Virus record (IMG/VR): IMGVR_UViG_3300041935_000006
Span: 1 to 45,147 of that record
Direction: 5' to 3' (one strand)
Source: a virus
Length of the DNA: 45,147 nt
In this document: piece by piece, positions 1,947-45,147 of the stretch
How the letters are laid out: each line of letters begins with the position of its first letter
Position numbering within the stretch: position 1 is the stretch's first letter
The notes under the pieces: generated by a model
What the model saw: the letters and a program-made list of their open reading frames with translations, nothing else
Database searches by the model: none
What the model was told of the DNA's origin: nothing
Position numbers and translations under genes: made by a program

Positions 1947-2618
1947 CGCACTACAAGCGAGAGCGGTGATGCACACGCTGATCGCAAACTTGGTTGCAGG
2001 TTGCAGGCCCTCTCGCGCACACTCCCGCGCATGACCGCGCGACCGCGACCCACTGCACCCCGAAAAGCCAGAAAACCCGCGCAAAACGTAGCCCGACGCG
2101 AGCCCGTATGGCTGAAAGAGGGCGCGCGCTTGAAAGCGATCCTCGCCGAGCGCGGGATCTCTCACTCGGATTTCGCGCGTGAGTGCGGCGTCGCGTACCA
2201 CAACGTGTATCGCTGGACACGCGGGCACGAGTTCACCGAGGACAATCAAGGCATCGCCTGTGCAGTGATCGGCATCAAGCCCGAGGCACTCTCGACGACG
2301 CGGCGCAGTGCATTGCCGGCGATCGAGGCGGCGAAGCGCGCATTCCTCGCTGCGCGGCGACGCGAGCTCGAGGCCGGCGCCGTGCTCGAGGCGTTCAAAG
2401 CCAAGCCTATCGCCGCGTCGCTCACCGCGGCCGATTGGAGCGTGCTCAAGTCGATCCGATTCTTTGACGAGGCGTTGCGACCCTCGGTCGCATTCTTCGA
2501 GGCGGTCGCGTTCGCCCTCAAGGGTGCAATCCGCGTTGACGAGATTGCGGCCGTCGCCGCCGAAAACGCCGAGCTCGACCGCACCCTCGCCCACAAAGGA
2601 TCACTTCCACGTCGCTAG
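1941..2618 (+). CDS. XRE-family HTH regulator (CI-like candidate repressor)
   Basis: HTH segment GISHSDFARECGVAYHNVYRWTRG. GTG 1941 lies 7 nt after the TTATAA -10, the same geometry as site 2, which suggests a leaderless start. An alternative ATG at 2031 has no obvious RBS. Confidence 0.7.
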   Translation: MVRTTSESGDAHADRKLGCRLQALSRTLPRMTARPRPTAPRKARKPAQNVARREPVWLKEGARLKAILAERGISHSDFARECGVAYHNVYRWTRGHEFTEDNQGIACAVIGIKPEALSTTRRSALPAIEAAKRAFLAARRRELEAGAVLEAFKAKPIAASLTAADWSVLKSIRFFDEALRPSVAFFEAVAFALKGAIRVDEIAAVAAENAELDRTLAHKGSLPRR

Positions 2619-2733
2619 TCTCGTCATTTCGCGCACTTTTCGCGTTGCGAGATCCGGCTCACGCTCGTTAGGTTGCGATCTCTCGCGTGCCTCGTTCGGG
2701 TGGGAACGAATTGGCGCGCGAAGTGGGGGACGC

Positions 2734-2979: not shown

Positions 2980-3020
2980 TTGCATGGCGTCACAACGCGG
3001 CGTTATAACGCCGCGTGGTG
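2980..3020 (+). promoter_or_regulatory. Promoter/operator, site 2 (TTGCAT-N17-TTATAA, leaderless geometry)
   Basis: TTGCAT at 2980-2985 and TTATAA at 3003-3008. The 30-bp near-perfect palindrome CACAACGCGGCGTTA|TAACGCCGCGTGGTG spans 2991-3020. The ORF start GTG 3015 is 7 nt after the -10. Confidence 0.6.
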
Positions 3021-3704
3021 AGTGCAGCGGCGCATAACGACAACGGGTCGATCTCGATCGACTGCGATGAGTGGATCTCCGACGAGCACGACAACCCGTC
3101 GTGCACGTGTGAGCCATGCGTGCGCGTGCGCTCGAGCGACGAGGCCGAGCGACGTCGACGCGAGGCTCTCACGTGCGGGGGGCTGTTCCCGCTCGCGCAC
3201 GTGTTGCTCGGTGAGGGGTGGGTCGACGAGGACGGCAAGGGGGGCAACGTGGTGGCGCAACCGAGACAAGATGCAGTCGACGTAAAGAGCTTGGCGCAAC
3301 GTGCGCTCGGCGATGTGTTTGAGCAGCTCGAGCGGGTCGGGAGCGCCGGCCGGGAGAAGTGCAGGCCGAGCTCGACGTACTACTCGGCGGCGACGCCCTA
3401 CCCGGCCGAGCACCGGATCAAGCGGCACGAGGCGGTCGAGCTCTTGCGCTGCGCCGAGAACGCTCTCGACTACGCACGGGTTCACCTCGACTACCTCGAG
3501 CGCGACGAGGTGCGGGTGCGCGGGGGGCGCGCCTCGTTGCAGGTCGAGCCCGGTGCGCGTGTGCTCGTCGCCGACGACGAGAACGCGAGCACATGGGCCG
3601 GCGTGCTCGTCGACCTCGGCGAGGGCGAGTCGTGCCGCGTGCGCGACGACGCCGGGCTACTGCACACGCTCGACGTGCGCGACCTGAGAGCGTTCGCCGT
3701 ATGA
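3015..3704 (+). CDS. Hypothetical protein (229 aa)
   Basis: The ORF has no internal Met. A GTG start at 3015 or 3018 lies inside the promoter palindrome. Its stop overlaps the next start as ATGA. Confidence 0.6.
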   Translation: MVSAAAHNDNGSISIDCDEWISDEHDNPSCTCEPCVRVRSSDEAERRRREALTCGGLFPLAHVLLGEGWVDEDGKGGNVVAQPRQDAVDVKSLAQRALGDVFEQLERVGSAGREKCRPSSTYYSAATPYPAEHRIKRHEAVELLRCAENALDYARVHLDYLERDEVRVRGGRASLQVEPGARVLVADDENASTWAGVLVDLGEGESCRVRDDAGLLHTLDVRDLRAFAV

Positions 3705-4598: not shown

Positions 4599-5488
4599 AA
4601 CAGACAGTCGTGAAGGTGCCCGGTATCTACTCGGGTCACGAGGTCGACTACAGCGAGATCGACGCGGTGAATCAGTCGACGCTCAAGGCGATCGCGAAGA
4701 GCCCGCTGCACTACCAACACGGGTTGACCCATCCCAAGAAACAAACCAACCCGATGCGCCTCGGCCTCGTCGCGCACACGGCCGTGCTCGAGCCGCACCG
4801 CCTCGACACCGACTTTGCTCTATGGGCACCGGTCGACGAGGACACCGGCGAGATCTTGAAGGATGACTTCAAGGGCAACGTGTACAAAGCGTTTGCCGCG
4901 CGCGCCGAGCTCGAGGGCCGCACCGTGATCAAGCAACGCGACCTCGACACCGCAAAGCGGATCGGCGAGGCGGTGCGCGGCAACGCTCTTGCGATGCGGT
5001 ACCTCAAGAAGGTGCGGGCCGAGCTGATCCTCGTTTGGCGTGATGAGGAAACCGGCATCGTCTGCAAAGCGCGCCTCGATGGTGTGTCGGAGTCGGTGCC
5101 CGACGTGCTCGTCGAGCTCAAGAGCGCGGTCGACGTCGCACCGTGGGCCTTCGAGTCGGCCTTTGCAAAGCGCATGTACCATCTACAGACCGCGTTCTAC
5201 TCCGATGGGTGGAAAGCCTGCACGGGCCGCGAGCTGCACGGCGGCAAGTGCATCGCCGTCGAGAACCTCGAGCCGCACGACGTGATCGTGTACGACCTCG
5301 CCGAGGTGACAGACATCGGGCGCGAGACGAAACGCGAGCTCCTCGGCAAGGTCGCCGAGTGCCGGCGCTCGGGTCTGTGGCTCGGTCAATCGCCGCTCGA
5401 GGAACGAACACTCAGATTGCCGAAGTGGCTCGAACCCGACGACGAGAACACGCTCGACGAGCTCGGCCTCGAGTATGCAAATGGGTGA
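4595..5488 (+). CDS. PD-(D/E)XK exonuclease (RecE/DUF3799-like)
   Basis: Nuclease core ARLDGVSESVPDVLVELKS followed by YHLQTAFY, as in phage PD-(D/E)XK exonucleases. ATGA overlap at 4595. Confidence 0.7.
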   Translation: MKQTVVKVPGIYSGHEVDYSEIDAVNQSTLKAIAKSPLHYQHGLTHPKKQTNPMRLGLVAHTAVLEPHRLDTDFALWAPVDEDTGEILKDDFKGNVYKAFAARAELEGRTVIKQRDLDTAKRIGEAVRGNALAMRYLKKVRAELILVWRDEETGIVCKARLDGVSESVPDVLVELKSAVDVAPWAFESAFAKRMYHLQTAFYSDGWKACTGRELHGGKCIAVENLEPHDVIVYDLAEVTDIGRETKRELLGKVAECRRSGLWLGQSPLEERTLRLPKWLEPDDENTLDELGLEYANG

Positions 5489-6734: not shown

Positions 6735-7386
6735 AAGCGACACATTCACGGCGACGGTCACCGTGCCAGAGGCCGGCGACGATCGAAAGGCGGCGAGCGT
6801 CGTGCCTGCCTTTCAAGCGCTAGCGAACCGCACCAAAAATCTGAAAGGACGGCTCGACGACTTCCTCGCCGACCCGCACACGTGGGCCGACGATCAGCGG
6901 TTCGACGGTGACATCGTCCTCGGGCCGGGCTCGGTGATCCGTCACGTCGTCGCCGCGCAGCGCAAGATCGTGTTGCCGCTCAAACCTGACTTCCCGACCG
7001 TGAATTGGCTGTTCGCGCCGACACCGACGCCGGTATGGGCATGCGGCTCGACGGCCTCGGCGCTGTTCTTTACGATCGGGCCGGGCATCTTGCCCGACGG
7101 GGGGCAACTCGTGTCCGTGAGCGCGAGCGTCAACACCTCGATCGACGTGACGCTCAAACTCGCACGCATTACGTACGACACCTCGATCGCCGGGAGCGGC
7201 ACCGAGGGCACGGTGCTCACCGACTCGTTTTCGCCGACGGGCACCGAGGAGCACATACTCAACATCGGCGCGTTGAGCGCGCTGATCAACAACGCAACGA
7301 GTCTGTTCCGCATCGCGATCGATCCCGACGCGAGCGGGCCGGGCCTCGCGTTGCAGTGGATCGAGCTCGTCGTCACCGACCCTTGA
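6715..7386 (+). CDS. Tail-fibre-like protein encoded outside the tail module
   Basis: ATG 6715 follows GAGGGGG. The N-terminus ESDTFTATVTVPEAGDDRKAASVVPAFQALANRTKNLKGRLD matches the conserved phage fibre N-terminal pattern (P.dGD..a.sv....LAnRT.yLk). Confidence 0.5.
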   Translation: MAVDLTESDTFTATVTVPEAGDDRKAASVVPAFQALANRTKNLKGRLDDFLADPHTWADDQRFDGDIVLGPGSVIRHVVAAQRKIVLPLKPDFPTVNWLFAPTPTPVWACGSTASALFFTIGPGILPDGGQLVSVSASVNTSIDVTLKLARITYDTSIAGSGTEGTVLTDSFSPTGTEEHILNIGALSALINNATSLFRIAIDPDASGPGLALQWIELVVTDP

Positions 7387-7948
7387 GCCCGGCGTGCTCG
7401 AGGAACATCGCCGCGCACTCGGGATCGGAGAGGAACGGGCCGAACACGCGGCGAAACTTCTCGCCCAGATACTTGGCTTTGAACTCGGGCACGACGGCGC
7501 ACTCGGCCTCGAAAGCGTAGTCGTACCCTTGCTCGATCACGATCTCGCACATCGAGGCGTACACGCTCACGAGCGCGGCGAACGCCTGCCACTCGCCGTG
7601 CGGCATCTTGAGGCCGACGTGATAGATCCGGGTCTGCACCGCGCGCATTTCGGCGATCTCTGAGAGCATCTCGGCGACGCGCTGCGCCGGCAACGGGGGC
7701 TCGCGAGGCGTTGCGCGGGTGCGCATGGGGCGGCCGAAGGTGCGACTCGGGTTGCGGCTGATCGCCCTACCCTCGTCGGGTGTCACCTCGCCGAGCTCGT
7801 GCAGGCGAGAGGCGAGCTCGGGCTCGGCGAATGCAGGGCACCGGCAGAAGGCGCCGGGCACGTCTCGAGCGAACACGCACGTATCAGGGAAGTGAAGGTG
7901 TCGCGTGTGCCCGCACGCGGCGCACGTGTCTTGCGGATCATGTGTCAT
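7373..7948 (-). CDS. Zinc-ribbon-motif protein (191 aa)
   Basis: ATG 7948 forms an ATGA overlap with the upstream stop. N-terminal motif CAACGHTRHLH...CRCPAF. The C-terminal domain has no recognisable motif. Confidence 0.6.
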   Translation of the reverse strand: MTHDPQDTCAACGHTRHLHFPDTCVFARDVPGAFCRCPAFAEPELASRLHELGEVTPDEGRAISRNPSRTFGRPMRTRATPREPPLPAQRVAEMLSEIAEMRAVQTRIYHVGLKMPHGEWQAFAALVSVYASMCEIVIEQGYDYAFEAECAVVPEFKAKYLGEKFRRVFGPFLSDPECAAMFLEHAGLKGR

Positions 7949-8301
7949 GGTCGAGGGCCTTTCGGTTCCGGGGGGGGCGGCACGAAACAGCCGCACATGA
8001 AACGGGGCCGGTCGTGCTTAGTGCACACTCCGCAAAAGCTGTGGCCGAAATCGCCCCCGTGCAGGCACGACGCACGGTCGAGGTCATCGAGCTCGGGCTC
8101 GACGCCGAACCGCGCGCGGTACTCGTCGGCCGTCACTTGCCGAGCTTCTGTCGGATTCTGCCGGAGCTCGTCACGGATCCCGTGCAGCTCGCTCACGACG
8201 CGATCGAGTGAGTCGGCCGCGCTCGCGTGCGGTGCGAGGGTGCCGGCGACGTACGCCGCGACGAGGGCGAGAGCGAGTGCGGTTCGCTTGAGCAAGGTCA
8301 C
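7945..8301 (-). CDS. Secreted Cys-rich protein (signal peptide)
   Basis: GTG 8301 forms a GTGA overlap. The N-terminus (M)TLLKRTALALALVAAYVAGTLAPHASA-ADS looks like a cleavable signal peptide. The C-terminus has 5 Cys (CLHGGDFGHSFCGVCTKHDRPRFMCGC). Confidence 0.55.
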   Translation of the reverse strand: MTLLKRTALALALVAAYVAGTLAPHASAADSLDRVVSELHGIRDELRQNPTEARQVTADEYRARFGVEPELDDLDRASCLHGGDFGHSFCGVCTKHDRPRFMCGCFVPPPPEPKGPRP

Positions 8302-8516
8302 TCCTCGGGATAGACGCCGCACGACTCGTCGTCGGCGTCGGTGATGTGGATCCGGTGACACGTCGGGCACCGGTGCTCGGCGTCAATGTCCTCGTCCTCG
8401 TCCTCGACACCGAGGCAACACGCGCAACCGGGATCGGTCATGCCGAGCGAGCAACCGACGAGCGGCCCGAGCTTGTGATCGCTCTCGGTGTGGGGGCACC
8501 GCGCGCAGTACCTCAT
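8298..8516 (-). CDS. Small acidic zinc-ribbon-motif protein (72 aa)
   Basis: ATG 8516 forms an ATGA overlap. Motifs CARCPHTESDH...CACC and CPTCH. Confidence 0.55.
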   Translation of the reverse strand: MRYCARCPHTESDHKLGPLVGCSLGMTDPGCACCLGVEDEDEDIDAEHRCPTCHRIHITDADDESCGVYPEE

Positions 8517-8875
8517 GGGATCGCCGTGAACTTGTGCCCGCGCACGTTTGCGAGCAACTCGTCGAGCTCGAGGCGGCGACGTTCCGACTCGGCCGAGTCG
8601 CGCTTGTGCAGGCAATCCCAACAGAGGCGCCGCACCTCGGTGTCGAGGATCGAGCCGACGACGGCACCGATCGTCCCTCGTTGCATGGCGTCGTGCTCGA
8701 GCTCGTGCCGCTCGAGCTGTTCGTACGTGCGCACCTTCGGCGGCACCGGGTGCGGCACGTAGCGACCGAGCTCGACCTCGACGCGCTCGAGCGCGGCGAG
8801 CAGATCGGCACGCGGTCGAGCCGGGCCGAGCGAGTGTTGACCGCACGAGGTGCACTTGCGAGCGGACCGCCTCAC
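8513..8875 (-). CDS. Hypothetical CxxC...CxxC protein (120 aa)
   Basis: GTG 8875 forms a GTGA overlap. Motifs CTSCGQH and CWDCLH. Confidence 0.5.
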   Translation of the reverse strand: MRRSARKCTSCGQHSLGPARPRADLLAALERVEVELGRYVPHPVPPKVRTYEQLERHELEHDAMQRGTIGAVVGSILDTEVRRLCWDCLHKRDSAESERRRLELDELLANVRGHKFTAIP

Positions 8876-9144
8876 CGGCGCACCTTGCCGTTCTCGGCGG
8901 CGATCGCGGCGGCCGTCGCGCGAACGCGGATCAGTTGCCCGAGCTCGTCTTCGTGCGCGCGCTTGTGCGCCACTTTGCACCGCTCGACGTGTGCTTTGCG
9001 TGCGTCGAAGTCGCCGGCCGCGTGCGCGGTCATCGCGTGGGCCATTTGCTCGCAAGCGATCGCGTACTGCCGGTTCGTGGTCGCGAGTGCCTCGGTGCGC
9101 AGATCGGCCGGCGTCGCTTGCTGCATCTCGGATAGCGTTTTCAT
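8872..9144 (-). CDS. Hypothetical helical protein (90 aa)
   Basis: ATG 9144 forms an ATGA overlap with the upstream stop. Confidence 0.5.
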   Translation of the reverse strand: MKTLSEMQQATPADLRTEALATTNRQYAIACEQMAHAMTAHAAGDFDARKAHVERCKVAHKRAHEDELGQLIRVRATAAAIAAENGKVRR

Positions 9145-9395
9145 GACTGCACCTCGCACTCGCACCCACTGCGCGAGTAACAGCTCAAGAGCGCGAGCAC
9201 GGCGCCGATCTCGTCGAGCGCGGTAGCGTCCTCGAGCGAGAGAGCGGCCGACCACCCGCACGCACTGACGGCCTCGAGCAGTACGCCGCGAGTGGCACCG
9301 GCCGCGAGGATCATCGGCCCGACGATCCCGAGGATGCGATCACGAGCGTCGACGAGTGCGGGGGGCGTAGTGGTATCGTTGGAACAGCTCAACAC
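9141..9395 (-). CDS. Hypothetical protein, first gene of the 9395->7373 operon
   Basis: GTG 9395 lies 5 nt after a strong GGAGGT RBS (9408..9403). There is a hydrophobic stretch ILGIVGPMILAAGATRGVLL. Confidence 0.55.
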   Translation of the reverse strand: MLSCSNDTTTPPALVDARDRILGIVGPMILAAGATRGVLLEAVSACGWSAALSLEDATALDEIGAVLALLSCYSRSGCECEVQS

Positions 9396-9417
9396 GGGTT
9401 ACCTCCGTTGCGAGTGA

Positions 9418-9467
9418 GAGAGCGGGTCGGCGATGTCAGAGGCGCCGGGCTCGCTCTCGTTTTTTTT
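9418..9467 (+). terminator. Intrinsic-terminator-like hairpin plus T8 tract, plus-strand orientation
   Basis: GAGAGCGGGTCGGCG (9418-9432) pairs with CGCCGGGCTCGCTCTC (9443-9458), giving about 14 bp with one wobble pair and one bulge. It is followed by g + TTTTTTTT (9460-9467). No plus-strand gene lies upstream. Confidence 0.5.
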
Positions 9468-9626
9468 GCGTGTTCCTATTGTACGGCGAAGTCGGGCGCG
9501 CGTGCCAAGCTGCAACGCGCACTGCACCCGGGAGGCGCGCGGCGACGGGGGGCCATCGCACGCACTCGAGCGGAGAATCGAAGCGGGATCGCGTCGACCT
9601 CCCGGGCCGCGGCGACAGTCGCATCG

Positions 9627-9675
9627 TGTGAACATGTAGTCAAGTGCACATGTTCACGTGTACACATGTCACCGC
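9627..9675. repeat. ACATGT-core repeat array A (three 16-bp units), candidate centromere/operator
   Basis: GTGAACATGTAGTCAA / GTGCACATGTTCACGT / GTACACATGTCACCGC. ACATGT cores sit at 9632, 9648 and 9664. GTGAACATGT (9628-9637) and ACATGTTCAC (9648-9657) are inverted. The array ends 20 nt before the parA ATG. Confidence 0.8.
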
Positions 9676-9694
9676 GTCGTGTAAGCCTGCGCGC

Positions 9695-10378
9695 ATGGCT
9701 GTTCGGATCTGTTTCGTCGGCGGCAAAGGGGGCCTCGGCAAGTCGACCCTCGCGATTTCGTGCGGGGTCGAGTGGCACCGTCGAGGTCGCCGCGTGCTCC
9801 TCGTCGACGTCGACGACGAGCAACTGTCGGCCGAGGAGTGGCACGACGACGCGCTCGAGCTCGAGCTCGACGCACCCCTCGTCGTGAGCATGGGTAACGA
9901 GGTGCGCACTCAGCTCGAGCCGGCCTCGGCCGCGTTCGAGATCGTGATCGTCGACACGGCCGGCCGCAACGGTCGGCGCTCGGCACACGTCATGGGACAG
10001 TGCGACCTTGCCGTGCTCCCGTGCGGGCCGAACCGGATCGAGCTGCGCCGACTCCCGAAAACGGTTGCGCAAGTGCGCGACGTGCAGGCGGTGCGGCCCA
10101 AGCTCGACGCCGCGATCCTCGTGACGCGCAAGCAACCAAACACGGTGATCGGGAGGCAGGCCCGGCGAGCGATTGAGGAATGCGACTTCCCGATCCTCGA
10201 CGTCGAGCTGTTCTATCGCATCACGTACGGCGAGGCGATCGCGGCCGGGCTCGGGCCGACCACGTACGACCCATCGAGTGACGCCGCACGCGAGGTCGGC
10301 GCACTCGTTGACGAGCTCGAGCGCCGGCTCGAGCTGCACACCACAACCAAACCAAAGAGGAAGCATGCCACCCGCTAA
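9695..10378 (+). CDS. parA: ParA-family partition ATPase (small, type Ib-like)
   Basis: Deviant Walker A CFVGGKGGLGKST, Walker A' LLVDVD and Walker B-like IVIVDTAG. 227 aa with no N-terminal HTH extension. Confidence 0.85.
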   Translation: MAVRICFVGGKGGLGKSTLAISCGVEWHRRGRRVLLVDVDDEQLSAEEWHDDALELELDAPLVVSMGNEVRTQLEPASAAFEIVIVDTAGRNGRRSAHVMGQCDLAVLPCGPNRIELRRLPKTVAQVRDVQAVRPKLDAAILVTRKQPNTVIGRQARRAIEECDFPILDVELFYRITYGEAIAAGLGPTTYDPSSDAAREVGALVDELERRLELHTTTKPKRKHATR

Positions 10379-10721
10379 ACCGACACCGACCGTGCGCTCG
10401 TCGACGCGCGCGAAAAAGCAACCGGCACCGCTCGAGGGCCGCGCGCTGCAACGCGAGCTCGACCGGATCGGCCGCAAACACGAGAGGCCGGCCGAGGGTG
10501 AGCACCCCGTCGCCGGCCGCGGGATCGTCAAGATGCCCGGCCGCGCCACCAAAGAGGGCCGCAAGGGTGAGCGCGTCACTCGTCGCGCGACGTTCTATCT
10601 CCCGCTCGAGGTGCACGACGAGCTCGAGGTCACCGCCAAGCGCCGCGGTATGTCGGTGAGCAACGCCGCGGCCGAGCTCCTCGCCGACGCGCTCGGTGTC
10701 ACGCTCGAGGCGACGGGATGA
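10365..10721 (+). CDS. Ribbon-helix-helix DNA-binding protein (ParG/omega-like candidate centromere binder)
   Basis: ATG 10365 follows AGAGGAAG and overlaps the parA end. A long basic N-terminal tail precedes the RHH pattern RATFYLPLEVHDELEVTAKRRGMSVSNAAAELLADAL. Confidence 0.65.
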   Translation: MPPAKPTPTVRSSTRAKKQPAPLEGRALQRELDRIGRKHERPAEGEHPVAGRGIVKMPGRATKEGRKGERVTRRATFYLPLEVHDELEVTAKRRGMSVSNAAAELLADALGVTLEATG

Positions 10722-11008
10722 CAGACAAAGAACAGCTCGAGCGCATTGACGCGCTCACCCGGGAGCTCGCTCGCGTCGTGCGGTGCCACGTCGACAGTCT
10801 GACTTCCGACGACGCGATGTTGATCGGCACGATGGCCACTAGCGCCGTGTTCGCGTTGAGCCTGCACACGGGTTTGAGCAAGCATCACGGCCGAGACCCG
10901 ACGAAAGAGTGTTCGCCCGAGACACTCGTCGGGAGCGCGCTTAGGGCTCCGTGGGGTCGCGCCGTCGAGGCGGCGCTCGACCTCGCCGAGGAGGGGCTCA
11001 CATGCTGA
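10718..11008 (+). CDS. Hypothetical protein (96 aa)
   Basis: ATGA overlap at 10718. Confidence 0.55.
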   Translation: MTDKEQLERIDALTRELARVVRCHVDSLTSDDAMLIGTMATSAVFALSLHTGLSKHHGRDPTKECSPETLVGSALRAPWGRAVEAALDLAEEGLTC

Positions 11009-11400
11009 AGTGCCCAGCATGCAAGCTCGTCGGCCGTGACGCCGAGGGCAACGTCGACGGCCGCAAACAGTTGCCACCCATCGGCGCGCTCGTGTTGTGC
11101 GAGTGCGGCGCCGTGAACCGGGCCGAGGCGCCGGCCGATGCGTTGCAAGCCATCCTCGGCGCGCGCACGCTGCGCACGCTCACCGCCGAGGAGTTCGACG
11201 CCCTACCGCTCGAGCACCGCCGCTCGCTCGAGCAAGGGATCGCCGCCTTCAAGCGTGCCGGTCGCTACCGTGCCGGCGCAAACGAGCTCGACCCGTGTGC
11301 GTCGTGCGGGCACGAGCGGCGACAACACCTCGACCCGCGATGGCCGTGCAACATGCTTGCGTGCGCGTGCCGCGGTTTCCAAGGGAGGGCCTTGCCGTGA
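11002..11400 (+). CDS. Zinc-ribbon-motif protein (132 aa)
   Basis: ATG 11002 follows GAGGAGGGG. N-terminal CPAC...CEC and C-terminal CASCGHERRQH...CACRGF. Confidence 0.6.
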   Translation: MLKCPACKLVGRDAEGNVDGRKQLPPIGALVLCECGAVNRAEAPADALQAILGARTLRTLTAEEFDALPLEHRRSLEQGIAAFKRAGRYRAGANELDPCASCGHERRQHLDPRWPCNMLACACRGFQGRALP

Positions 11401-11675
11401 ACCGCGCGCAGCGCCGAGCCGGCAAGATCCCGCACTCGTTCCGGGTGCGCACCGGGATCCACTACATGACCAACGGCACCTTCGTCGCGTTCGCGCGCAT
11501 CGATCGCGAGGACGGCTCGACGCAATGGTGGGAGTCGACGCCGTACACCGACGAGGCCGAGGCCGAGCGGCACCGCGACGAGCTCTCGACCGGCATCCGA
11601 GCGATCCTCGCAAAGCAGCAAACGAACCTCGCCGGACTGCGCGTGCACCCGGTGACGAAAGGCGGTGACGCGTGA
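11397..11675 (+). CDS. Hypothetical protein (92 aa)
   Basis: GTG 11397 forms a GTGA overlap and follows AAGGGAGGG. Confidence 0.5.
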   Translation: MNRAQRRAGKIPHSFRVRTGIHYMTNGTFVAFARIDREDGSTQWWESTPYTDEAEAERHRDELSTGIRAILAKQQTNLAGLRVHPVTKGGDA

Positions 11676-11719
11676 ACATGACGACAAGTGAACATGACGA
11701 CAAGTCAACACGTAACCAG
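11672..11719. repeat. ACATGT-family repeat array B (16-bp units x3)
   Basis: GTGAACATGACGACAA occurs twice exactly (11672-11687 and 11688-11703), followed by GTCAACACGTAACCAG. Cores ACATGA/ACAAGT/ACATGA/ACAAGT/ACACGT fall every 8 bp from 11676. Confidence 0.8.
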
Positions 11720-11941
11720 GCGTTGCCCGCGCAGTGCGTGCACGTCGCCGAGGGCGAGCTCGAGCACTTGCACACGCTCGAGCTCACCACCCGCACCGAG
11801 GCCGTGCAGCCCGATTACCGATACGTGATCAACGGCGATCGCATGCGTCTGTGCGCGTTCTGCACGGGCAAGGTGATCGGGATGCTATCGCGGTCGGAGT
11901 TCACCGGCGGTGCACTGCTCGCGCCCGAGGCCGAGCGGTGA
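11672..11941 (+). CDS. Hypothetical protein (89 aa)
   Basis: GTG 11672 (GTGA overlap) or ATG 11678/11694. The first 16 codons are the repeat array itself. There is a CAFC motif. Confidence 0.5.
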   Translation: MNMTTSEHDDKSTRNQALPAQCVHVAEGELEHLHTLELTTRTEAVQPDYRYVINGDRMRLCAFCTGKVIGMLSRSEFTGGALLAPEAER

Positions 11942-12513
11942 TTTTCACGTTCGGATTCGGTCACTCGTGCTCGTGCGGGCTCTCGTTGCGCGAGTGCTAC
12001 GTCGAGATCGGCGGCGATTACGACACCGCGCGCGCGGCAATGATCGATCGCTACGGTGTGAAGTGGGCCTTTGAGTACGACACGCTCGCCGACGCGACCG
12101 GCGAGCACCCGATCGAGCTGCGCCGCCTCGAGCCGAACGACGAGTGCGGGTGCGGGGGGCTCGGCCGGCAACCGTGGGATCCGGGTGAGAGCCCGGTGCC
12201 ACCCGAGGTCATGACGAGGATCCCACCCGAGCGGCTCGCCGAGATCGAGCGGCTCGCGGGTGCGTTCGTTGCCGAGCACCTCGAGACGAGCGCCGAGCGG
12301 GTCGACGCGTTCGCACACGGCGTCGACGAGTCGGCCCGGGAGGCGTTCGGCAAACCGCTCGCGATCCTCGTGCTCGGCACGGCCCGAACCGGGTTCACCG
12401 TCGCGTCACCGCTCGAGCAACCCGAGGTCGCTCGGGAGCTGCGCGCGCTCCTCGCTCGCATCGAGGCCGAGCTCGAGGGCCGGCCCCCCGTCGGCAAACC
12501 GCACACCTCGTAG
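11938..12513 (+). CDS. Conserved hypothetical phage protein (191 aa)
   Basis: GTG 11938 forms a GTGA overlap. The N-terminal pattern IFTFGFGH...YVEIGGDYDTARAAMIDRYGVKWAFEY recurs in many phage proteins of unknown function. Confidence 0.6.
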   Translation: MIFTFGFGHSCSCGLSLRECYVEIGGDYDTARAAMIDRYGVKWAFEYDTLADATGEHPIELRRLEPNDECGCGGLGRQPWDPGESPVPPEVMTRIPPERLAEIERLAGAFVAEHLETSAERVDAFAHGVDESAREAFGKPLAILVLGTARTGFTVASPLEQPEVARELRALLARIEAELEGRPPVGKPHTS

Positions 12514-12640
12514 CTCCTCGTCGAAGCGGCTCGCCTCGTCGACGAAGATCCGCACCCCGCTCTTGAGCTGCACGAACGCGTCGACGGCGAACCCGGCGAG
12601 CGCTCGAGCTCGGCGCTTGCGCTCGCGTTTGGTTATACGT

Positions 12641-12668
12641 CGGGTGCGCTGCACCCGTCTTATATGTC
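12641..12668 (+). terminator. Candidate weak intrinsic terminator of the parA-side operon
   Basis: Perfect 7-bp stem CGGGTGC-gct-GCACCCG (12641-12657) followed by TCTTATATGT. The U tract is interrupted, so support is weak. Confidence 0.3.
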
Positions 12669-12930
12669 CGGGAGGGCCGCGCACCCCACGAACAAAGGCC
12701 GTGCCAGCGTCGAATTCAGGCCGACGGATCGCCGACGATCGTCCGAAAGTGACCATACGTGCAAGCGCGCTTGTCGAAAAAGCGCGTGGTTTCGTGACGG
12801 GGGGTGTGACGAATCCTTGCGCTGCGCACGTGGGCTATCGTACGAGTCCGTCACTACCGAAAACAACTAGCGACGGAAACACAAAACCCACGGATCACAG
12901 CCTGCCAGGGCTCCCCGTGGGTCTCACTCG

Positions 12931-14007
12931 ATGCGCCAAACTACTTCGACACGTGCCCGCGTGCAACATCGTTGCGCGCGCGATGTGCAGGACTGCGCCG
13001 ACGCGCAGCTCGAGCTCGACGACGAGACCCTCGACGCGACGTTGCGCGAGCTGTACGCCGCGCACGACGAGGGCAACCCGTGTGACCTCTCGGTCGCCGA
13101 GCTCGCTGCGCGGTACTCACCCGGCCCTCACGGCGAGCGCGCGATCCGGCGAGCCCACGTGCGCATCCAGCGGACCTATCGCGGCCGGTTCGTGCAGCGC
13201 GCGCGCAGCTACCGACGGATCACCCTCTCCACTGCGCGATGGATCATCCCGTTCGATAGAGATCCAGGGGGTGGTGGTAGATCGGACGTCTCTAATTCCG
13301 AATTCGTTGATCTGCGAATTGGAGATCTTGATCTAGAGGCAAACGCAGATCGCGCACGCGCGTGTGAGCCTGCCCCTCGAGCTACTCGACCTCCCGAGAG
13401 GCGAGAGCGGCGACCGGCAACGCGCCTGCACGTACCGCGCACCCCACTGCTCGAGCACCCGATCGGCATCGAGGCGGGAGTTTTGGCCGAGGTCGACCGC
13501 GTGCACGGCGCAAAGTGGCTCTCGCGCCTCGTGCGCGAGCTGCACAAGCCCAAGTGTCACGAGCACCCGGCCGAGTGCGAGCTCGCGTTGCGCACCCTCT
13601 CACGGCGCAGCACCGACAACCCGTTGCGCATGTTCCGTTTCTTGCTCAACGAGGCGATCGACGGCGACGCGCTGATCGAAACCGCCGAGCTCGACAAGCT
13701 CGCCGACGCGGCCGAGGAGTGCGCTCGAGCGCGGTACGCGTGGGATCCCGACAACCCGTCGACGCATTGGCCTGATCTGATTCCCGAGGGTACGGCGGCA
13801 CCCCCACCCGAGGAGCTCGAGCCCGATCCCGAGGAGCTTGCGCGCATCGCTGCACGCAAACGCCTCGAGCACGAGGTCGACGAGAAACGGCGACGGCGAG
13901 AGGCCGAGCGCATCGTCGGGTTGTTGCTTCGTGCGACGGGCCGATCACCGCCGACGGCGGCCGAGCGGTTCCTCACCGTGATGCAGGGCCGCGGGCTCGC
14001 GCTCTGA
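12931..14007 (+). CDS. Hypothetical two-domain protein with an embedded low-G+C repeat island
   Basis: The frame stays open across the island with no stop. Third-position G+C is high in 12985-13255 and 13440-14007 and low in 13258-13440. The N-part has an HTH-like segment LSVAELAARYS...ERAIRRAHVRIQ. The start is uncertain: ATG 12931, GTG 12961 or GTG 12985. Confidence 0.55.
   Translation: MRQTTSTRARVQHRCARDVQDCADAQLELDDETLDATLRELYAAHDEGNPCDLSVAELAARYSPGPHGERAIRRAHVRIQRTYRGRFVQRARSYRRITLSTARWIIPFDRDPGGGGRSDVSNSEFVDLRIGDLDLEANADRARACEPAPRATRPPERRERRPATRLHVPRTPLLEHPIGIEAGVLAEVDRVHGAKWLSRLVRELHKPKCHEHPAECELALRTLSRRSTDNPLRMFRFLLNEAIDGDALIETAELDKLADAAEECARARYAWDPDNPSTHWPDLIPEGTAAPPPEELEPDPEELARIAARKRLEHEVDEKRRRREAERIVGLLLRATGRSPPTAAERFLTVMQGRGLAL
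13255..13352. repeat. Low-G+C island with clustered AGATC/GATCT and CGAATT repeats
   Basis: gatAGAGATCCa, gtAGATCgg, CGAATTCGTTGATCT / CGAATTGGAGATCT / TGATCT tandem units (13300-13335) and gcAGATCgc. This is six AGATC/GATCT copies within about 100 bp. Confidence 0.7.
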
Positions 14008-14010
14008 ATT

Positions 14011-14040
14011 CACAACGCGGCGTTACAACGCGCGCCGAGT
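14011..14040 (+). promoter_or_regulatory. Promoter/operator, site 3 (half-conserved copy)
   Basis: CACAACGCGGCGTTA (14011-14025) is identical to 2991-3005. It is followed by CAACGCGCGCC. The -10-like hexamer is TTACAA. It lies 36 nt upstream of ATG 14076. Confidence 0.5.
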
Positions 14041-14075
14041 TGTGTAGTGTCCGAACCGAACGGGAGGGGGCAACC

Positions 14076-14444
14076 ATGGGCATGTGTGAAGTGCACGAGG
14101 AACAGACCGAGCTTGCCGGCGAGATCGGCGAGCTGATCGCGCGACGTCGGGCCGAGTGGCGCAGCTCGCACGGTGCCGGCGCCGACTACATGAACATTTC
14201 GATGGGTGCGATCACCGAGGCTCTAGCAACCGAGATGATCCAGCATTGTCGAGCGTCGTTTCGTTACACCCCATCGCTCGAGCAAATGGCGCGGATCTGC
14301 GCGGAATATCCTCCCGTCCTGATCGAGGCCGTCGGCCGCGTGATCGGAGCGCCCGCGCATGAGGTCATACGCTACACACAACCGCTCGTCGCCGCGCTGA
14401 TCGAGGTGCTCGCCGAGCGGGTCGGGAAGCGGCCGTCCGCATGA
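14076..14444 (+). CDS. Hypothetical protein (122 aa)
   Basis: ATG 14076 follows GGGAGGGGG. Confidence 0.6.
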   Translation: MGMCEVHEEQTELAGEIGELIARRRAEWRSSHGAGADYMNISMGAITEALATEMIQHCRASFRYTPSLEQMARICAEYPPVLIEAVGRVIGAPAHEVIRYTQPLVAALIEVLAERVGKRPSA

Positions 14445-14707
14445 TCGGCCTGAAACTCTTGCTGCAAAATGAGGCCGTGACCGGGTACCTCGTCGCGCAC
14501 CCCCGGTTGCAGAACGGCGGCACCGTGCCCGAGGCGGTCATGCTCTTGCGCAACAACACCTCGGCCGGCCGGTGCGCGGTCGCGCTGCACGTCGTGATCG
14601 ACGGCCGCGATCACCTCGTCAAGCTCACCCTCGACATGTGGCAAACCATCGCCGAGGTCTCGCGCTCGATGGCCGTCGAGCTGTACGGCGAGGAGCGGGC
14701 ACCATGA
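14441..14707 (+). CDS. Hypothetical protein (88 aa)
   Basis: ATGA overlap at 14441. Confidence 0.6.
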   Translation: MIGLKLLLQNEAVTGYLVAHPRLQNGGTVPEAVMLLRNNTSAGRCAVALHVVIDGRDHLVKLTLDMWQTIAEVSRSMAVELYGEERAP

Positions 14708-15000
14708 TCACACTGCGCGCAGCGTACAGCGCCGAGCTCGACGTCAAGCGCTCGGTGATCATCGTGCGCGACCGTAGCAACGAGCTGAATACCATCTCGG
14801 TCACGAACGCGGCCGAGTCGGTGATCGCCGACCTCGCCGCGGGCATGGGCATCGAGGGCCGACGCGTCGTGTACCTCGACACGCTCGGCATTTGGGACGA
14901 GCTCTTGCACGACGGCTCGAGGTTCACCGGGTACGCACCGATCCGCGATGCCGAGCTGAAAGCGCACCTCGTCGAGATCGCGCTCGAGCGTGGGGGCTGA
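14704..15000 (+). CDS. Conserved hypothetical protein (98 aa)
   Basis: ATGA overlap at 14704. The pattern SVTNAAESVIADL...VVYLDTLGIWDEL is typical of a small phage/plasmid family of unknown function. Confidence 0.6.
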   Translation: MITLRAAYSAELDVKRSVIIVRDRSNELNTISVTNAAESVIADLAAGMGIEGRRVVYLDTLGIWDELLHDGSRFTGYAPIRDAELKAHLVEIALERGG

Positions 15001-15001
15001 G

Positions 15002-15328
15002 ATGCGCAAACAACACCCGTACGCCGGCCACTTCATCGCGTCGTTTGACTGCCTGTTTCGGCTGCACACCTCGGTCAACGGCCGCTTTCGGATCTCGACG
15101 GTCGGCGAGTGGCACCCGGATATCCCGCCGAACGTCGGCGAGCGCCGATACAAGCACCCCCCGCGCGAGATCGGGGTCGATCGCTTGTACGAAACGATGG
15201 TGTTCCCGCTCGGTGCCGACGGTGAGCCGGTGTCTTGGGAGGGCATCGATCATCGGTCGTACAACACGGCCGCCGAGGCCGAGGCCGGTCACGAGGAGCT
15301 CGTCAGCAAGTGGGAGGCGGCACCGTGA
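15002..15328 (+). CDS. Conserved hypothetical protein (108 aa, YETMVF motif)
   Basis: ATG 15002 lies 1 nt after the upstream stop. Confidence 0.6.
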   Translation: MRKQHPYAGHFIASFDCLFRLHTSVNGRFRISTVGEWHPDIPPNVGERRYKHPPREIGVDRLYETMVFPLGADGEPVSWEGIDHRSYNTAAEAEAGHEELVSKWEAAP

Positions 15329-15603
15329 AGCCACGCAAGAAGCACCCCAACACCGTGACGATCTACGGCCTCGCGCAGCTCGCGCTCGACACGTTCGGAG
15401 CGCTCACCGCGGCCGAGGTGCGTGCCCTGATCGCCGACGATCCCGAGGGCCTCGCGCCTCACGAGCGGTACGACCTCACCCTCTCGCGCGTCACGGCCGC
15501 GCTGCGCTCGATGGTGCTCGACCGCTCGGCCCTCTCGGTCACCGAGGACGGGATCGCGCGCTACAGGCTGCGATCGGCGTCACGTGTACATGTGAACATG
15601 TAG
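15325..15603 (+). CDS. Winged-helix-like small protein (92 aa)
   Basis: GTG 15325 forms a GTGA overlap and follows GGGAGG. Segment LTAAEVRALI...LTLSRVTAALRSMVLDRSALSVTEDGIARYRL. The last six codons (RVHVNM) are encoded by repeat array C. Confidence 0.55.
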   Translation: MKPRKKHPNTVTIYGLAQLALDTFGALTAAEVRALIADDPEGLAPHERYDLTLSRVTAALRSMVLDRSALSVTEDGIARYRLRSASRVHVNM

Positions 15604-15628
15604 ACATGTGAACATGTGAACATGTTCA
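15585..15628. repeat. ACATGT-core repeat array C (five contiguous 8-bp units)
   Basis: ACATGTGA ACATGTAG ACATGTGA ACATGTGA ACATGTTC with cores at 15588, 15596, 15604, 15612 and 15620. It ends in the perfect 12-bp palindrome TGAACATGTTCA (15617-15628). It contains the stop codons of both convergent genes. Confidence 0.85.
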
Positions 15629-16294
15629 TACGATGCCGACGGCCATGCCGTGTGCGTGGATCTTGCGCAGTAGATCGAGGCCCGGGTCGGGCTTGACCGG
15701 CGAGAAGTGCAAGTGTCCGGCCGGCCCTCGGAACGTTGCCGCGATGTGTGCCGGCAACACGGTCGGGAACACGTCGCCGTTGAGGATCGGCACGCGCATC
15801 GGGAGCGAGTAGGCCGAACAGAGCGCCGCGTTGAGCGCGATCACGCTCGCGATCTGCGCCGGGAAAAACTCGCCGTACTCGATCAGCCGACCATGGATCC
15901 GCTCGGTGCGCCGGGTACGGGTGAAACCCTTGTCGGGTGCCTTGCCGTGCCCGCGGTTGATGATCTCGATCCCGACGCCGTACGAGTTGCCGCCCCCGTC
16001 GGCGCAGTGCGCGCACCTCGCGTCGGCGTCGGCGCACTGATAGATCTCGCCGAGCTGATCGACGATGAAGTGCACCGAGAGAGCCTCGGGCTTGCCCGTG
16101 GTCGCGCTCTTGTGATCACGCATGAACTCGAACGCGCGATCGGCCGAGTTCTCGGCGGCCGTCCAATGATTGATGATCCATCGAGTCTCGTGCCGCATGC
16201 GCGTCAAGAAGTGCATGCCGGTCGACGTCCAGGGCCGCACCGGTGCGAGGCACCTGTACGACTGACCGCGCACGATGATCTCGCCGACGCTCAC
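15626..16294 (-). CDS. Endolysin, N-acetylmuramoyl-L-alanine amidase (Amidase_2/PGRP type)
   Basis: Motifs INHWTA, SVHFIVDQLGEIYQ and AHCADGGGNSYGVGIEIIN, as in T7-lysozyme-type amidases. GTGA overlap at 16294. Confidence 0.85.
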   Translation of the reverse strand: MSVGEIIVRGQSYRCLAPVRPWTSTGMHFLTRMRHETRWIINHWTAAENSADRAFEFMRDHKSATTGKPEALSVHFIVDQLGEIYQCADADARCAHCADGGGNSYGVGIEIINRGHGKAPDKGFTRTRRTERIHGRLIEYGEFFPAQIASVIALNAALCSAYSLPMRVPILNGDVFPTVLPAHIAATFRGPAGHLHFSPVKPDPGLDLLRKIHAHGMAVGIV

Positions 16295-38868: not shown

Positions 38869-39234
38869 CTAACGCGCGCGTGCGCCGGACAGTACCTGAG
38901 GGATCAGCTCGCTCGCCGCGTCGACGTGGTGTCGGAGCGAGCGGTATGCCGCGACGAGGCGCCGCACTTGATCGGGTGTCCATCCTCGCGAGAACGCGTC
39001 GAGGGCCTCGTCGGTGAGGCACTCGAGCTCGAGGCCGTACAAGATCGAGCCGACGAGCTCGGTGTTACGCGCGCGGTGTGTGGCGAACGCGGCGGCGAGC
39101 GTCGCCGCGAGGTCGGGGTGCTCGTCCTCGGGCTTGGCGCCGTCGAGGATCGCGAGCATGGCGAGCTTTGCGTACTGTCGGCCGAGCTCGACCTCGACCT
39201 CGTTCGGGGTGCCAACCGTCACGAGATACCCCAC
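38869..39234 (-). CDS. Hypothetical protein (117-121 aa)
   Basis: GTG 39234, or GTG 39222 as a GTGA overlap with the upstream stop. Confidence 0.5.
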   Translation of the reverse strand: MGYLVTVGTPNEVEVELGRQYAKLAMLAILDGAKPEDEHPDLAATLAAAFATHRARNTELVGSILYGLELECLTDEALDAFSRGWTPDQVRRLVAAYRSLRHHVDAASELIPQVLSGARAR

Positions 39235-39479
39235 CCGCGCATCGAGCTCTTGATCGTGCGGATCTGCCTCCCGGCCTCGGCGACTTGAGCGCGCGCGTTG
39301 CCGAGCTTGCGCGACTCGGCCGGCGAGCGGATCCGTACGTTGAGCTCGCGCAGCGCCGTCAGTATGGGGGCCGTCGAGACTTTGAACGCCTCGGCGAGCT
39401 CGACGATCGTCTCGCCCTTGCGGTAGCGACTTGCCACCTGATCGCGCTGATCCTCGGTCAAAACACGCTTACCACTCAT
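39219..39479 (-). CDS. HTH DNA-binding protein, first gene after repeat array D (small-terminase-like or regulator)
   Basis: ATG 39479 follows AAAGGAA. HTH segment GETIVELAEAFKVSTAPILTALRE. Confidence 0.6.
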   Translation of the reverse strand: MSGKRVLTEDQRDQVASRYRKGETIVELAEAFKVSTAPILTALRELNVRIRSPAESRKLGNARAQVAEAGRQIRTIKSSMRGWGIS

Positions 39480-39500
39480 GGGGGCCGGTTCCTTTCACGG

Positions 39501-39540
39501 TGACATGTTCACATGTGTACACGTGCACATGTACACGTTA
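39501..39540. repeat. ACATGT-core repeat array D (8-bp units)
   Basis: ACATGTTC ACATGTGT ACACGTGC ACATGTAC with cores at 39503, 39511, 39519 (ACACGT) and 39527. It lies between the stop of 39538..40260 and the start of 39219..39479. Confidence 0.8.
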
Positions 39541-45039: not shown

Positions 45040-45147
45040 AACCCCCCGCGCGCGCTGTTAGTGAGAGCTCTTCACGTCTGCATCGTCGTCGTCGTCGTCA
45101 CTATCGTCGTCGTCGTCACCCGGGCCGACCGGGTTCGGGTCGAACAG
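45021..45147. repeat. Terminal direct repeat, right copy (identical to 1..127)
   Basis: See the left copy. Exact 127-bp identity. Confidence 0.95.

Follow-up and report, generated by a model that had tools for sequence, protein, structure and literature searches.

Here we present a candidate partition module in the genome of an uncultured tailed phage, IMG/VR record IMGVR_UViG_3300041935_000006, whose 45,147 nucleotides (nt) were analyzed over their whole length and are referred to below as the window. The module comprises parA, an overlapping gene for a 118-residue protein with a ribbon-helix-helix (RHH) domain, and four arrays of tandem 8-bp repeats, one of which lies directly upstream of parA. 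We regard its identity as a type Ib par module as very probable. The combined interpretation, in which it is a partition-and-operator module of the type Ib kind, akin to pMF1 and ParFG, belonging to the likely episomal prophage of a contractile-tailed phage of ~45 kb, is judged probable. The strongest result of the analysis is that, in related phages, the repeat motif has changed in concert across the sites within each genome. The elements of the module are as follows.

9695..10378, plus strand: parA, 227 aa, ATG at 9695, small Walker-type ParF-like ATPase (type Ib)
10365..10721, plus strand: parB-like gene for a candidate centromere-binding protein, 118 aa, ATG after GAGGAA, overlapping the parA stop
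9628..9675: array 1, six 8-bp units, GTGAACAT GTAGTCAA GTGCACAT GTTCACGT GTACACAT GTCACCGC, ending 19 nt before the parA ATG
15584..15631: array 2, the strongest, GTGTACAT GTGAACAT GTAGACAT GTGAACAT GTGAACAT GTTCATAC, in which five perfect ACATGT cores recur every 8 bp
39500..39539: array 3, GTGACATG TTCACATG TGTACACG TGCACATG TACACGTT
11672..11719: array 4, GTGAACAT GACGACAA GTGAACAT GACGACAA GTCAACAC GTAACCAG

The parA gene and its RHH partner

The original prediction, a reading of the DNA that preceded this analysis, had placed a small ParA with the deviant Walker A motif GGKGGLGKST at 9695..10378, and profile matches to CbiA, PHROG, NCBIfam and ParF families confirmed it. The motif occupies residues 9-18 of ParA, with KGGLGKST at 11-18. 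Pfam CbiA matches the protein at 1.5e-11 and the PHROG 'ParA-like partition protein' at 1e-30, and NCBIfam ParA_partition aligns over its whole 203-position profile at 2.2e-40, with a score of 138 bits that does not reach the equivalog cut-off of 180. Seven residues are invariant in an alignment of 20 homologues, namely K11, G12, G13, K16, T18, D38 (Walker A') and D87 (Walker B), and the best solved relatives of the family profile are structures of TP228 ParA/ParF (5u1g at 1.3e-32 and 4dzz at 6.9e-32). Because the protein has 227 residues and its Walker A motif lies at the extreme N-terminus, it is assigned to the type Ib ATPases, which have no N-terminal DNA-binding domain. A type Ia ParABS system, with a large ParA carrying an N-terminal helix-turn-helix (HTH) and an HTH-type ParB, is not what the window encodes, given its 227-aa ParA and 118-aa RHH partner. 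The public (Logan) gene call begins at 9794 and yields 194 aa; that start would remove the Walker A motif and is thus wrong, and the start at 9695 is backed by the JGI call and by all homologues.

The 118-aa partner is translationally coupled to parA; its size falls within the ~45-130 aa of type Ib centromere binders, which typically have an RHH fold and whose genes directly follow that of the ATPase. The original prediction took it for a basic tail followed by an RHH domain, and this description held up in each of several comparisons. Searched as a single sequence, residues 76-110 match Pfam RHH_5 at 1.1e-4, under the gathering score. A profile built from 51 family members recovers a CopG-family RHH protein of solved structure (6e-7), followed by VapB26 (1.4e-4) and CopG (8e-3), with the matched residues always at ~70-115, and 18 of the 51 members match Pfam RHH_1. 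Pfam ParG was matched neither by the partner nor by its family; the PHROG Arc-like repressor matches at 0.0028. In a single-chain AlphaFold (AF2) model with a mean pLDDT (predicted local distance difference test) of 72, residues 1-22 form a disordered basic tail, followed by a helix at 23-38, a Gly/Arg-rich hairpin region at 51-73 and helices at 81-94 and 98-110 with pLDDT ~90, the RHH domain being C-terminal, at ~73-112. A Foldseek search with the monomer model gave no match at E <= 1e-3; its local matches are to RHH proteins, with the C-terminal 35-42 residues superposing on Arc, CopG, AvtR and SvtR at 1.2-2.4 A (root-mean-square deviation 2.2-2.4 A for Arc and CopG). We consider the RHH assignment sound. 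Relatives of the partner are few: nine proteins in a word-indexed search, and 92 cluster representatives among 1.84 billion in an exhaustive profile search. R11, R30, K38, E40 and R41 are conserved in a five-sequence alignment.

Profile searches of both proteins, which the original prediction had proposed as a check, thus matched ParA families for the ATPase and, through the family profile of the partner, RHH and CopG families, with ParG remaining unmatched. The type Ib, ParA/ParG-like layout that it proposed was likewise upheld: the nearest solved ParA is TP228 ParF, the nearest system is that of pMF1, and the gene pair is conserved in syntenic phages.

Repeat arrays and their concerted change in related phages

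The repeat unit in the window is 8 bp, GTnnACAT, which is equivalent to tandem palindromic nACATGTn boxes. The window contains 14 copies of ACATGT where 4.5 are expected; none of 100 shuffles reaches this count, and 11 of the 14 copies fall in three clusters. A scan allowing one mismatch revealed four clusters in 8-bp phase, with 10 phased core triples compared with a mean of 0.02 in simulated sequences. The original prediction had described three 16-bp units 20 nt before parA. Contiguous repeats do stand there, the array is non-random, and the quoted 16-mers are present, at 9628-9643, 9644-9659 and 9660-9675, one base later than had been given; however, the unit is 8 bp, the distance is 19 nt, and the array is one of four, those at 11672-11719, 15584-15631 and 39500-39539 having been missed. 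A 16-bp unit was rejected because the core of array 2 recurs every 8 bp and every relative shows 8-bp phase; the apparent 16-bp period reflects the degeneracy of alternate boxes in array 1.

Each array occupies a distinct position with respect to the genes. Conserved TAnnnn hexamers are found 8-15 nt upstream of the parA ATGs (TAAGCC, 9682-9687, in the window), and array 1 probably overlaps the -35 region of a putative promoter having this hexamer as its -10, which would give a near-leaderless mRNA. Array 4 lies just 5' of the conserved part of the fifth gene downstream (11672/11723-11941), which probably starts at TTG 11723. Array 2 is situated where the plus-strand par/early operon (stop 15601-15603) converges with the minus-strand virion/lysis operon (stop 15626-15628), and array 3 is 20-60 nt upstream, on the minus strand, of the ATG (39479) of a terS-like gene, directly before its ribosome-binding site (RBS). 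Terminator scans around arrays 1, 2 and 3 gave nothing above threshold.

Homologues of ParA at 45-57% identity are found on many contigs of 40-45 kb, and the relatives fetched are syntenic phages of ~43-46 kb carrying the same parA/RHH pair, with the RHH partner retained at 42-54% identity. An array in 8-bp phase stands directly 5' of parA in eight of these (L001, L087, L088, L089, L130, L131, L453 and L454), with the following motifs.

Window, L001 and L130: ACATGT/GTGAACAT
L087: TCGACATG
L453 (phage C): CACTAGTG palindromes
L089: GTCTAGGT/GTAGAC
L088 and L454: alternating CTTG/CAAG
L131: GTGACA/GTAACA

The same substitutions recur at the other sites. L001, L089 and L131 each have an array next to the endolysin stop, at the early/late junction, in the latter two with their own motifs, and in L088 two convergent junctions are occupied by arrays. 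Just before its terS-like gene, phage B (L089 plus L373) has three copies of GTCTAC (L373 9010-9042), and phage D (L454 plus L374) has CTTG/CAAG units at the terS-like position (L374 ~995-1026). Array 4 is kept with reshuffled units in L001, a relative of 87-90% (8645-8690), and has no equivalent in L089. Since each phage reuses its own motif at all of its sites, the arrays are taken to be functional and to be read by a phage-encoded, co-evolving protein. Sequence comparison thus points to one phage-encoded binding protein that co-evolves with the arrays, and homology together with co-variation leads us to infer that this binder is the RHH protein.

Some further observations concern the arrays and the relatives that carry them. 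L453 (IMG/VR 3300046747_000131) has five separate CACTAGTG/CACCGGTG arrays within 13 kb, more than the window (2670-2703, 3470-3502, 5278-5334, 7104-7136 and 9819-9867). A box, (G/T)GTCAAGT, at 9636-9643 in array 1 is kept in L001, L087 and L453 despite their otherwise differing motifs; on the minus strand it reads ACTTGAC, containing a -35-like TTGAC. The early regions of two relatives contain anti-defence-like genes (L130 7811-8044 and L131 12343-13260, with Acb2/Tad1-hairpin and AcrVA2-like Pfam matches). The distant terminase relatives L132-L135 showed no phased arrays by a lag-8 autocorrelation score and are uninformative.

The family is remote from characterized phages. Searches of GenBank phages with the cassette (blastn) and of 50,697 GenBank phage records with ParA and with the RHH protein (tblastn) gave no match, nor did PLSDB plasmids when searched with the RHH protein, and the terminase is at most 31% identical to that of any isolate. 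In IMG/VR, a scan with the single ParA protein returned nothing and an alignment-based scan returned three contigs; 14-mer motif scans gave nearly all chance singletons, and the L089 contig is present there. The metagenome scan with the 20-sequence ParA alignment rested on the Walker A pattern only and returned mostly distant ParAs.

Genome context, lifestyle and competing explanations

Bases 1-127 of the window are identical to 45021-45147, an exact terminal direct repeat as in a k=127 assembly overlap, and in Logan the same genome is assembled independently as a contig of 45,050 nt that begins at window position 3087. From this end overlap and the different start of the second assembly, the window is concluded to be a complete circular or circularly permuted genome of ~45,020 bp; its G+C content is 66.6%. 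The other parts of the gene map are as follows.

2130-2615, plus strand: 162-aa HTH (CI-like) regulator
Up to 7386, plus strand: recombination genes
7373-9395, minus strand: six small genes
9695-15603, plus strand: par operon and ~15 small genes, last stop at 15601-15603
Stop at 15626-15628, minus strand: endolysin gene, last of the virion/lysis operon
39219-39479, minus strand: 86-aa DNA-binding, terS-like gene, ATG at 39479, PHROG 'DNA binding protein' at 1.4e-6, heading the packaging/virion operon
After the terS-like gene: virion operon with large terminase, Mu-like portal, protease, major head protein, tail sheath, tape measure, baseplate and endolysin
43471-45003, minus strand: DnaB-type helicase, from gene calls and family matches
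From ~1683 across the contig junction to array 3, minus strand: unit encoding a NUMOD4 protein, a methyltransferase, the DnaB helicase, an endonuclease VII-like protein and a 240-aa protein

Gene calls and family matches support the earlier description of a complete contractile-tail module (terminase, portal, head, sheath, tape measure, baseplate and endolysin were all found) in a genome with no recognizable integrase. PHROG scans of the early and regulatory genes left many early genes with no recognizable function. Gene callers skipped 12513-13483 (~970 bp) within 12513-14007, calling there only a 174-aa open reading frame (ORF); a 358-aa ORF at 12931-14007, which has no family match, is kept in L001, L089, L453 and L454 by tblastn. 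Rfam and tRNA scans of the window were both empty, and PADLOC defence models gave no meaningful match.

A second family of sites is the palindrome TAACGCnGCGTTA, often in two tandem copies, which occurs at 1919-1944, 2993-3018 and 14013-14025 of the window. It is also present in L088 (9920, 15166 and 16163) and L089 (2196 and 3284), phages that have different par arrays, and one of the L088 copies immediately precedes the par array. The palindrome probably serves as operator for the 162-aa HTH regulator, whose recognition helix, YHNVYRW, is invariant across phages with different array motifs. The regulator (2130-2615) was also considered as the binder of the arrays and was rejected, since its helix is invariant while the array motifs differ and since it has this conserved palindrome of its own.

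On the minus strand at 9396-9486 there is a conserved -10-like element TACAATAG, an A-run, a conserved hairpin GAGAGCGG...CCGCTCTC and a GGAGG RBS in front of the leftward gene starting at 9395, an arrangement that looks like a leftward promoter with a structured 5' untranslated region. Viewed on the plus strand, the element is a hairpin followed by T8. The hairpin stem is conserved in five of six phages and shows no compensatory changes.

In the mechanism that we propose, dimers of the 118-aa RHH protein would load side by side on the tandem 8-bp boxes, one per box, in the manner of ParG and omega. Coating of array 1 would cover the -35 region of the parA promoter and so autorepress the operon, and the coated DNA at one or more arrays would form the partition complex. 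Array 2 is the best candidate for a pure centromere, as it has six contiguous good boxes and nothing to regulate. By extension from ParG, the RHH protein may activate nucleoid-bound ParA through its disordered N-terminal tail or helix, with conserved R11, R30, K38 and R41, and circular copies of the plasmid prophage would thereby be separated at cell division; arrays 3 and 4 would probably double as operators or roadblocks. Autorepression, ATPase stimulation and plasmid stabilization by the cassette are thus expected by analogy. A more tentative extension makes the RHH protein a gatekeeper of the prophage as well: arrays 2, 3 and 4 might act as roadblocks or silencers that keep late genes off and upstream replication genes on, in addition to segregation.

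In a different explanation, the RHH protein and its arrays mainly control transcription, as an omega- or Arc-like global repressor or roadblock gating the par/early operon, downstream early genes and the virion operon, with ParA accessory and segregation secondary or absent. A gene start follows each of arrays 1, 3 and 4 within 4-60 nt; in three phages, array 3 marks the exact boundary of the replication genes with the packaging/virion operon, and RHH proteins are classic phage and plasmid repressors, as the Arc-like PHROG match and the global regulator omega recall. Against this, the ParF-like ATPase, conserved and tightly coupled, keeps its catalytic residues intact, and array 2 and the arrays of L088 are at convergent gene ends with nothing downstream to regulate. 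We consider transcription control in place of partition unlikely, and more a complement than an alternative, since one protein does both jobs in pMF1 and pSM19035. Much less probable still is that the arrays are bound by another phage protein unrelated to ParA, either the 86-aa terS-like protein at pac sites or a replication initiator at origin iterons. Array 3 does abut the gene for this small DNA-binding protein upstream of the large terminase, and iterons are typical of replication origins; yet the only array position common to every relative is directly upstream of parA, a like array stands at parA in pMF1 and in pSa001 (~20 8-bp units), binding by the small ParB was shown in the homologous pMF1 system (PMC3235114), and four to five dispersed copies, as in L453, would be unexpected for a pac site or an origin.

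The lifestyle of the phage is the part of the interpretation to which we attach the least confidence, and on the sequence evidence we lean only slightly towards an episomal prophage state. The par module sits where lambdoid phages carry int/att, which was counted for this reading. No Pfam match to an integrase, resolvase, DDE-transposase or protelomerase is on record for the called genes, and PHROG or NCBIfam scans of some of the early/regulatory and virion genes likewise revealed no such family. The CI-like HTH regulator and its dispersed conserved operators suggest a temperate lifestyle. No ParA relative of at least 50% identity is on a contig larger than ~45 kb, and none is embedded in a larger host contig. 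The competing possibilities are that a virulent phage uses ParA and the RHH protein during infection, or that the phage integrates by an unrecognized recombinase; the par-like pair would then be comparable to the ParA genes of integrative elements. Contigs of metagenome-assembled genomes (MAGs) of Polyangiales/Myxococcota (L090 9884-12693 and L092 8385-11030) do encode a ParA (42-47%) and an RHH-like ORF adjoining a tyrosine integrase, so the same gene pair is also used by apparently integrated elements, and the episomal prophage of the original prediction, a reasonable inference, has to be read with this caveat. Many early genes are without a recognizable function, and a search of genome contigs turned up nothing closer than ParAs of 37-47% identity in Myxococcota MAGs and no host-borne copy of the phage, integrated or free. 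The absence of an integrase-like family match among the called genes, the temperate signature of the regulator and the confinement of all close relatives to contigs of at most unit genome length (~45 kb) make such a non-episomal phage improbable, less so than an unrelated array binder. The nearest chromosomal ParAs (37-47%) are in MAGs of Polyangiales, Polyangia and Nannocystis, from which the host is probably a myxobacterium of the Polyangia.

Several observations weigh against partition by an episomal prophage. The integrase-adjoining pairs on the MAG contigs, which are 210 kb and 14.7 kb in size, are of the same ParA clade. No plasmid-type Rep or initiator was recognized in the window, only a DnaB-type helicase, and a unit-length circular contig is equally expected from the virion DNA of a circularly permuted lytic phage. 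A scan for sigma-70-type consensus promoters at or near arrays 1, 2 and 3 found nothing above threshold. Comparison of the partner family profile with ParG (1p94) gave E 0.72, which is not significant, and profile-profile comparison (hhalign) of the RHH protein with pMF1 ParB gave a probability of 28% (E 6e-4), which makes that link weak. R74, T76 and Y78, in the predicted DNA-facing beta-strand, are mostly conserved among phages with different motifs. Finally, there is no parC between the array and parA in the window, unlike in pMF1, which needs the small acidic ParC for an active ParA; no ORF is found between array 1 and the parA ATG, and the 300-bp upstream region is non-coding.

Plasmid prophages with partition systems, centromere binders of the RHH type, repeat arrays overlapping promoters and dispersed iterons have all been described before. 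The novelty lies in the carrier, an uncultured phage family whose ParA and RHH protein have no homologue in GenBank phages. Plasmids are rare in its probable host phylum, and the family shows clean co-variation of motif and site. To our knowledge, integrase-free phages of 43-46 kb with a pMF1-type par would be the first candidate phage-plasmids for Myxococcota. If so, they are a possible source of stable vectors for the Polyangia, natural-product producers that are genetically difficult. With several natural pairs of protein and site, the reading of tandem 8-bp boxes by RHH proteins and incompatibility between related elements become testable, as does a possible link between partition and late-gene control through the array at the head of the virion operon. 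Were the gatekeeper idea true, one protein-DNA complex would both segregate a plasmid prophage and silence its late genes, and the family, in which each lineage has re-coded all its sites together with its protein, would constitute a natural RHH-DNA specificity code and a set of mutually compatible (non-cross-reacting) phage-plasmids for Myxococcota.

Comparison with known partition systems

The closest characterized relative, as judged from sequence, is the type Ib parCAB locus of the Myxococcus fulvus plasmid pMF1, which a 2011 description presented as the sole autonomously replicating plasmid known from myxobacteria (PMC3235114). Among 72,556 plasmids searched by tblastn, the best ParA matches are Sandaracinus amylolyticus pSa001 (38.9%) and pMF1 (32.9%). 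In pairwise alignment, ParA is 35% identical to pMF1 ParA (pMF1.22) over the full length (E 5e-35), and the RHH protein is 36% identical to pMF1 ParB (pMF1.23) over 70 aa (E 2e-6). In both plasmids parA is followed by the gene for a small protein with an RHH-like C-terminus; that of pSa001 matches the RHH protein at hhalign E 4.6e-6. In pMF1, ParB was found by footprinting and electrophoretic mobility shift assay to bind iterons of 8-bp AGATGTCT-like units, located upstream (ItA), downstream (ItB) and dispersed along the plasmid (ItC-F); it autorepresses the operon, and the par locus stabilizes plasmids in Myxococcus (PMC3235114). Read from the sequence, ItA (...GTCTAGAT GTCTAGAT GTTTGAAT...) has the same 8-bp architecture and is almost the motif of phage B. 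The two systems thus share 8-bp imperfect-palindrome iterons (AGATGTCT and GTCTAGAT in pMF1, nACATGTn and GTGAACAT here), situated upstream of the operon and dispersed, and, if the probable host of the window is correct, a host phylum. They differ in the partner, which has 118 aa with an extra helix and a Gly/Arg-rich hairpin region as opposed to the 75-87 aa of pMF1 ParB, and in the carrier, a tailed phage genome in which one array heads the virion operon rather than a small plasmid.

In pSa001 (L474 2296-2470), ~20 tandem 8-bp GCTCACnn units lie directly upstream of parA; the partner has 130 aa and is RHH-like at its C-terminus. From its sequence this array is apparently an undescribed candidate centromere of the same architecture.

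The TP228 operator consists of ACTC boxes with 4-bp spacers, an 8-bp period, and binds one ParG dimer per box; Arg19 of ParG activates ParF (PMC3130281, PMC5393062), and 5U1G is the ParF-ParG complex (PMC5393062). Like ParG, the partner in the window has a disordered N-terminal tail and a C-terminal RHH domain, and before the ATPase gene both systems have arrays of 8-bp period whose units run in direct and inverted orientation. The boxes differ, however, being GC-containing 8-bp palindromes in the window and ACTC boxes with AT-rich spacers in TP228, and the arrays of the window are dispersed, whereas those of TP228 form one block of ~160 bp.

In pSM19035, omega binds several promoter-overlapping parS arrays, and at least four contiguous repeats are needed to activate its ATPase (PMC9499535). 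The delta/omega/parS system resembles the module of the window in having several separate arrays near promoters and in omega being at once a global regulator and a partition protein. Its repeats, in contrast, are 7-bp non-palindromic heptads, its delta ATPase is larger and distantly related (E 5.8e-8), and its hosts are Firmicutes.

The partition systems of tailed phages, P1 ParAB-parS, N15 SopAB and the actinobacteriophage parABS, are of type Ia, with large HTH/CTPase ParB proteins, unlike the module described here. They belong to temperate phages, and they share with the window an integrase-free tailed phage genome equipped with a ParA-type partition system. Several separate centromere sites occur in N15 as well, where four inverted-repeat (IR) sites are scattered among phage genes.

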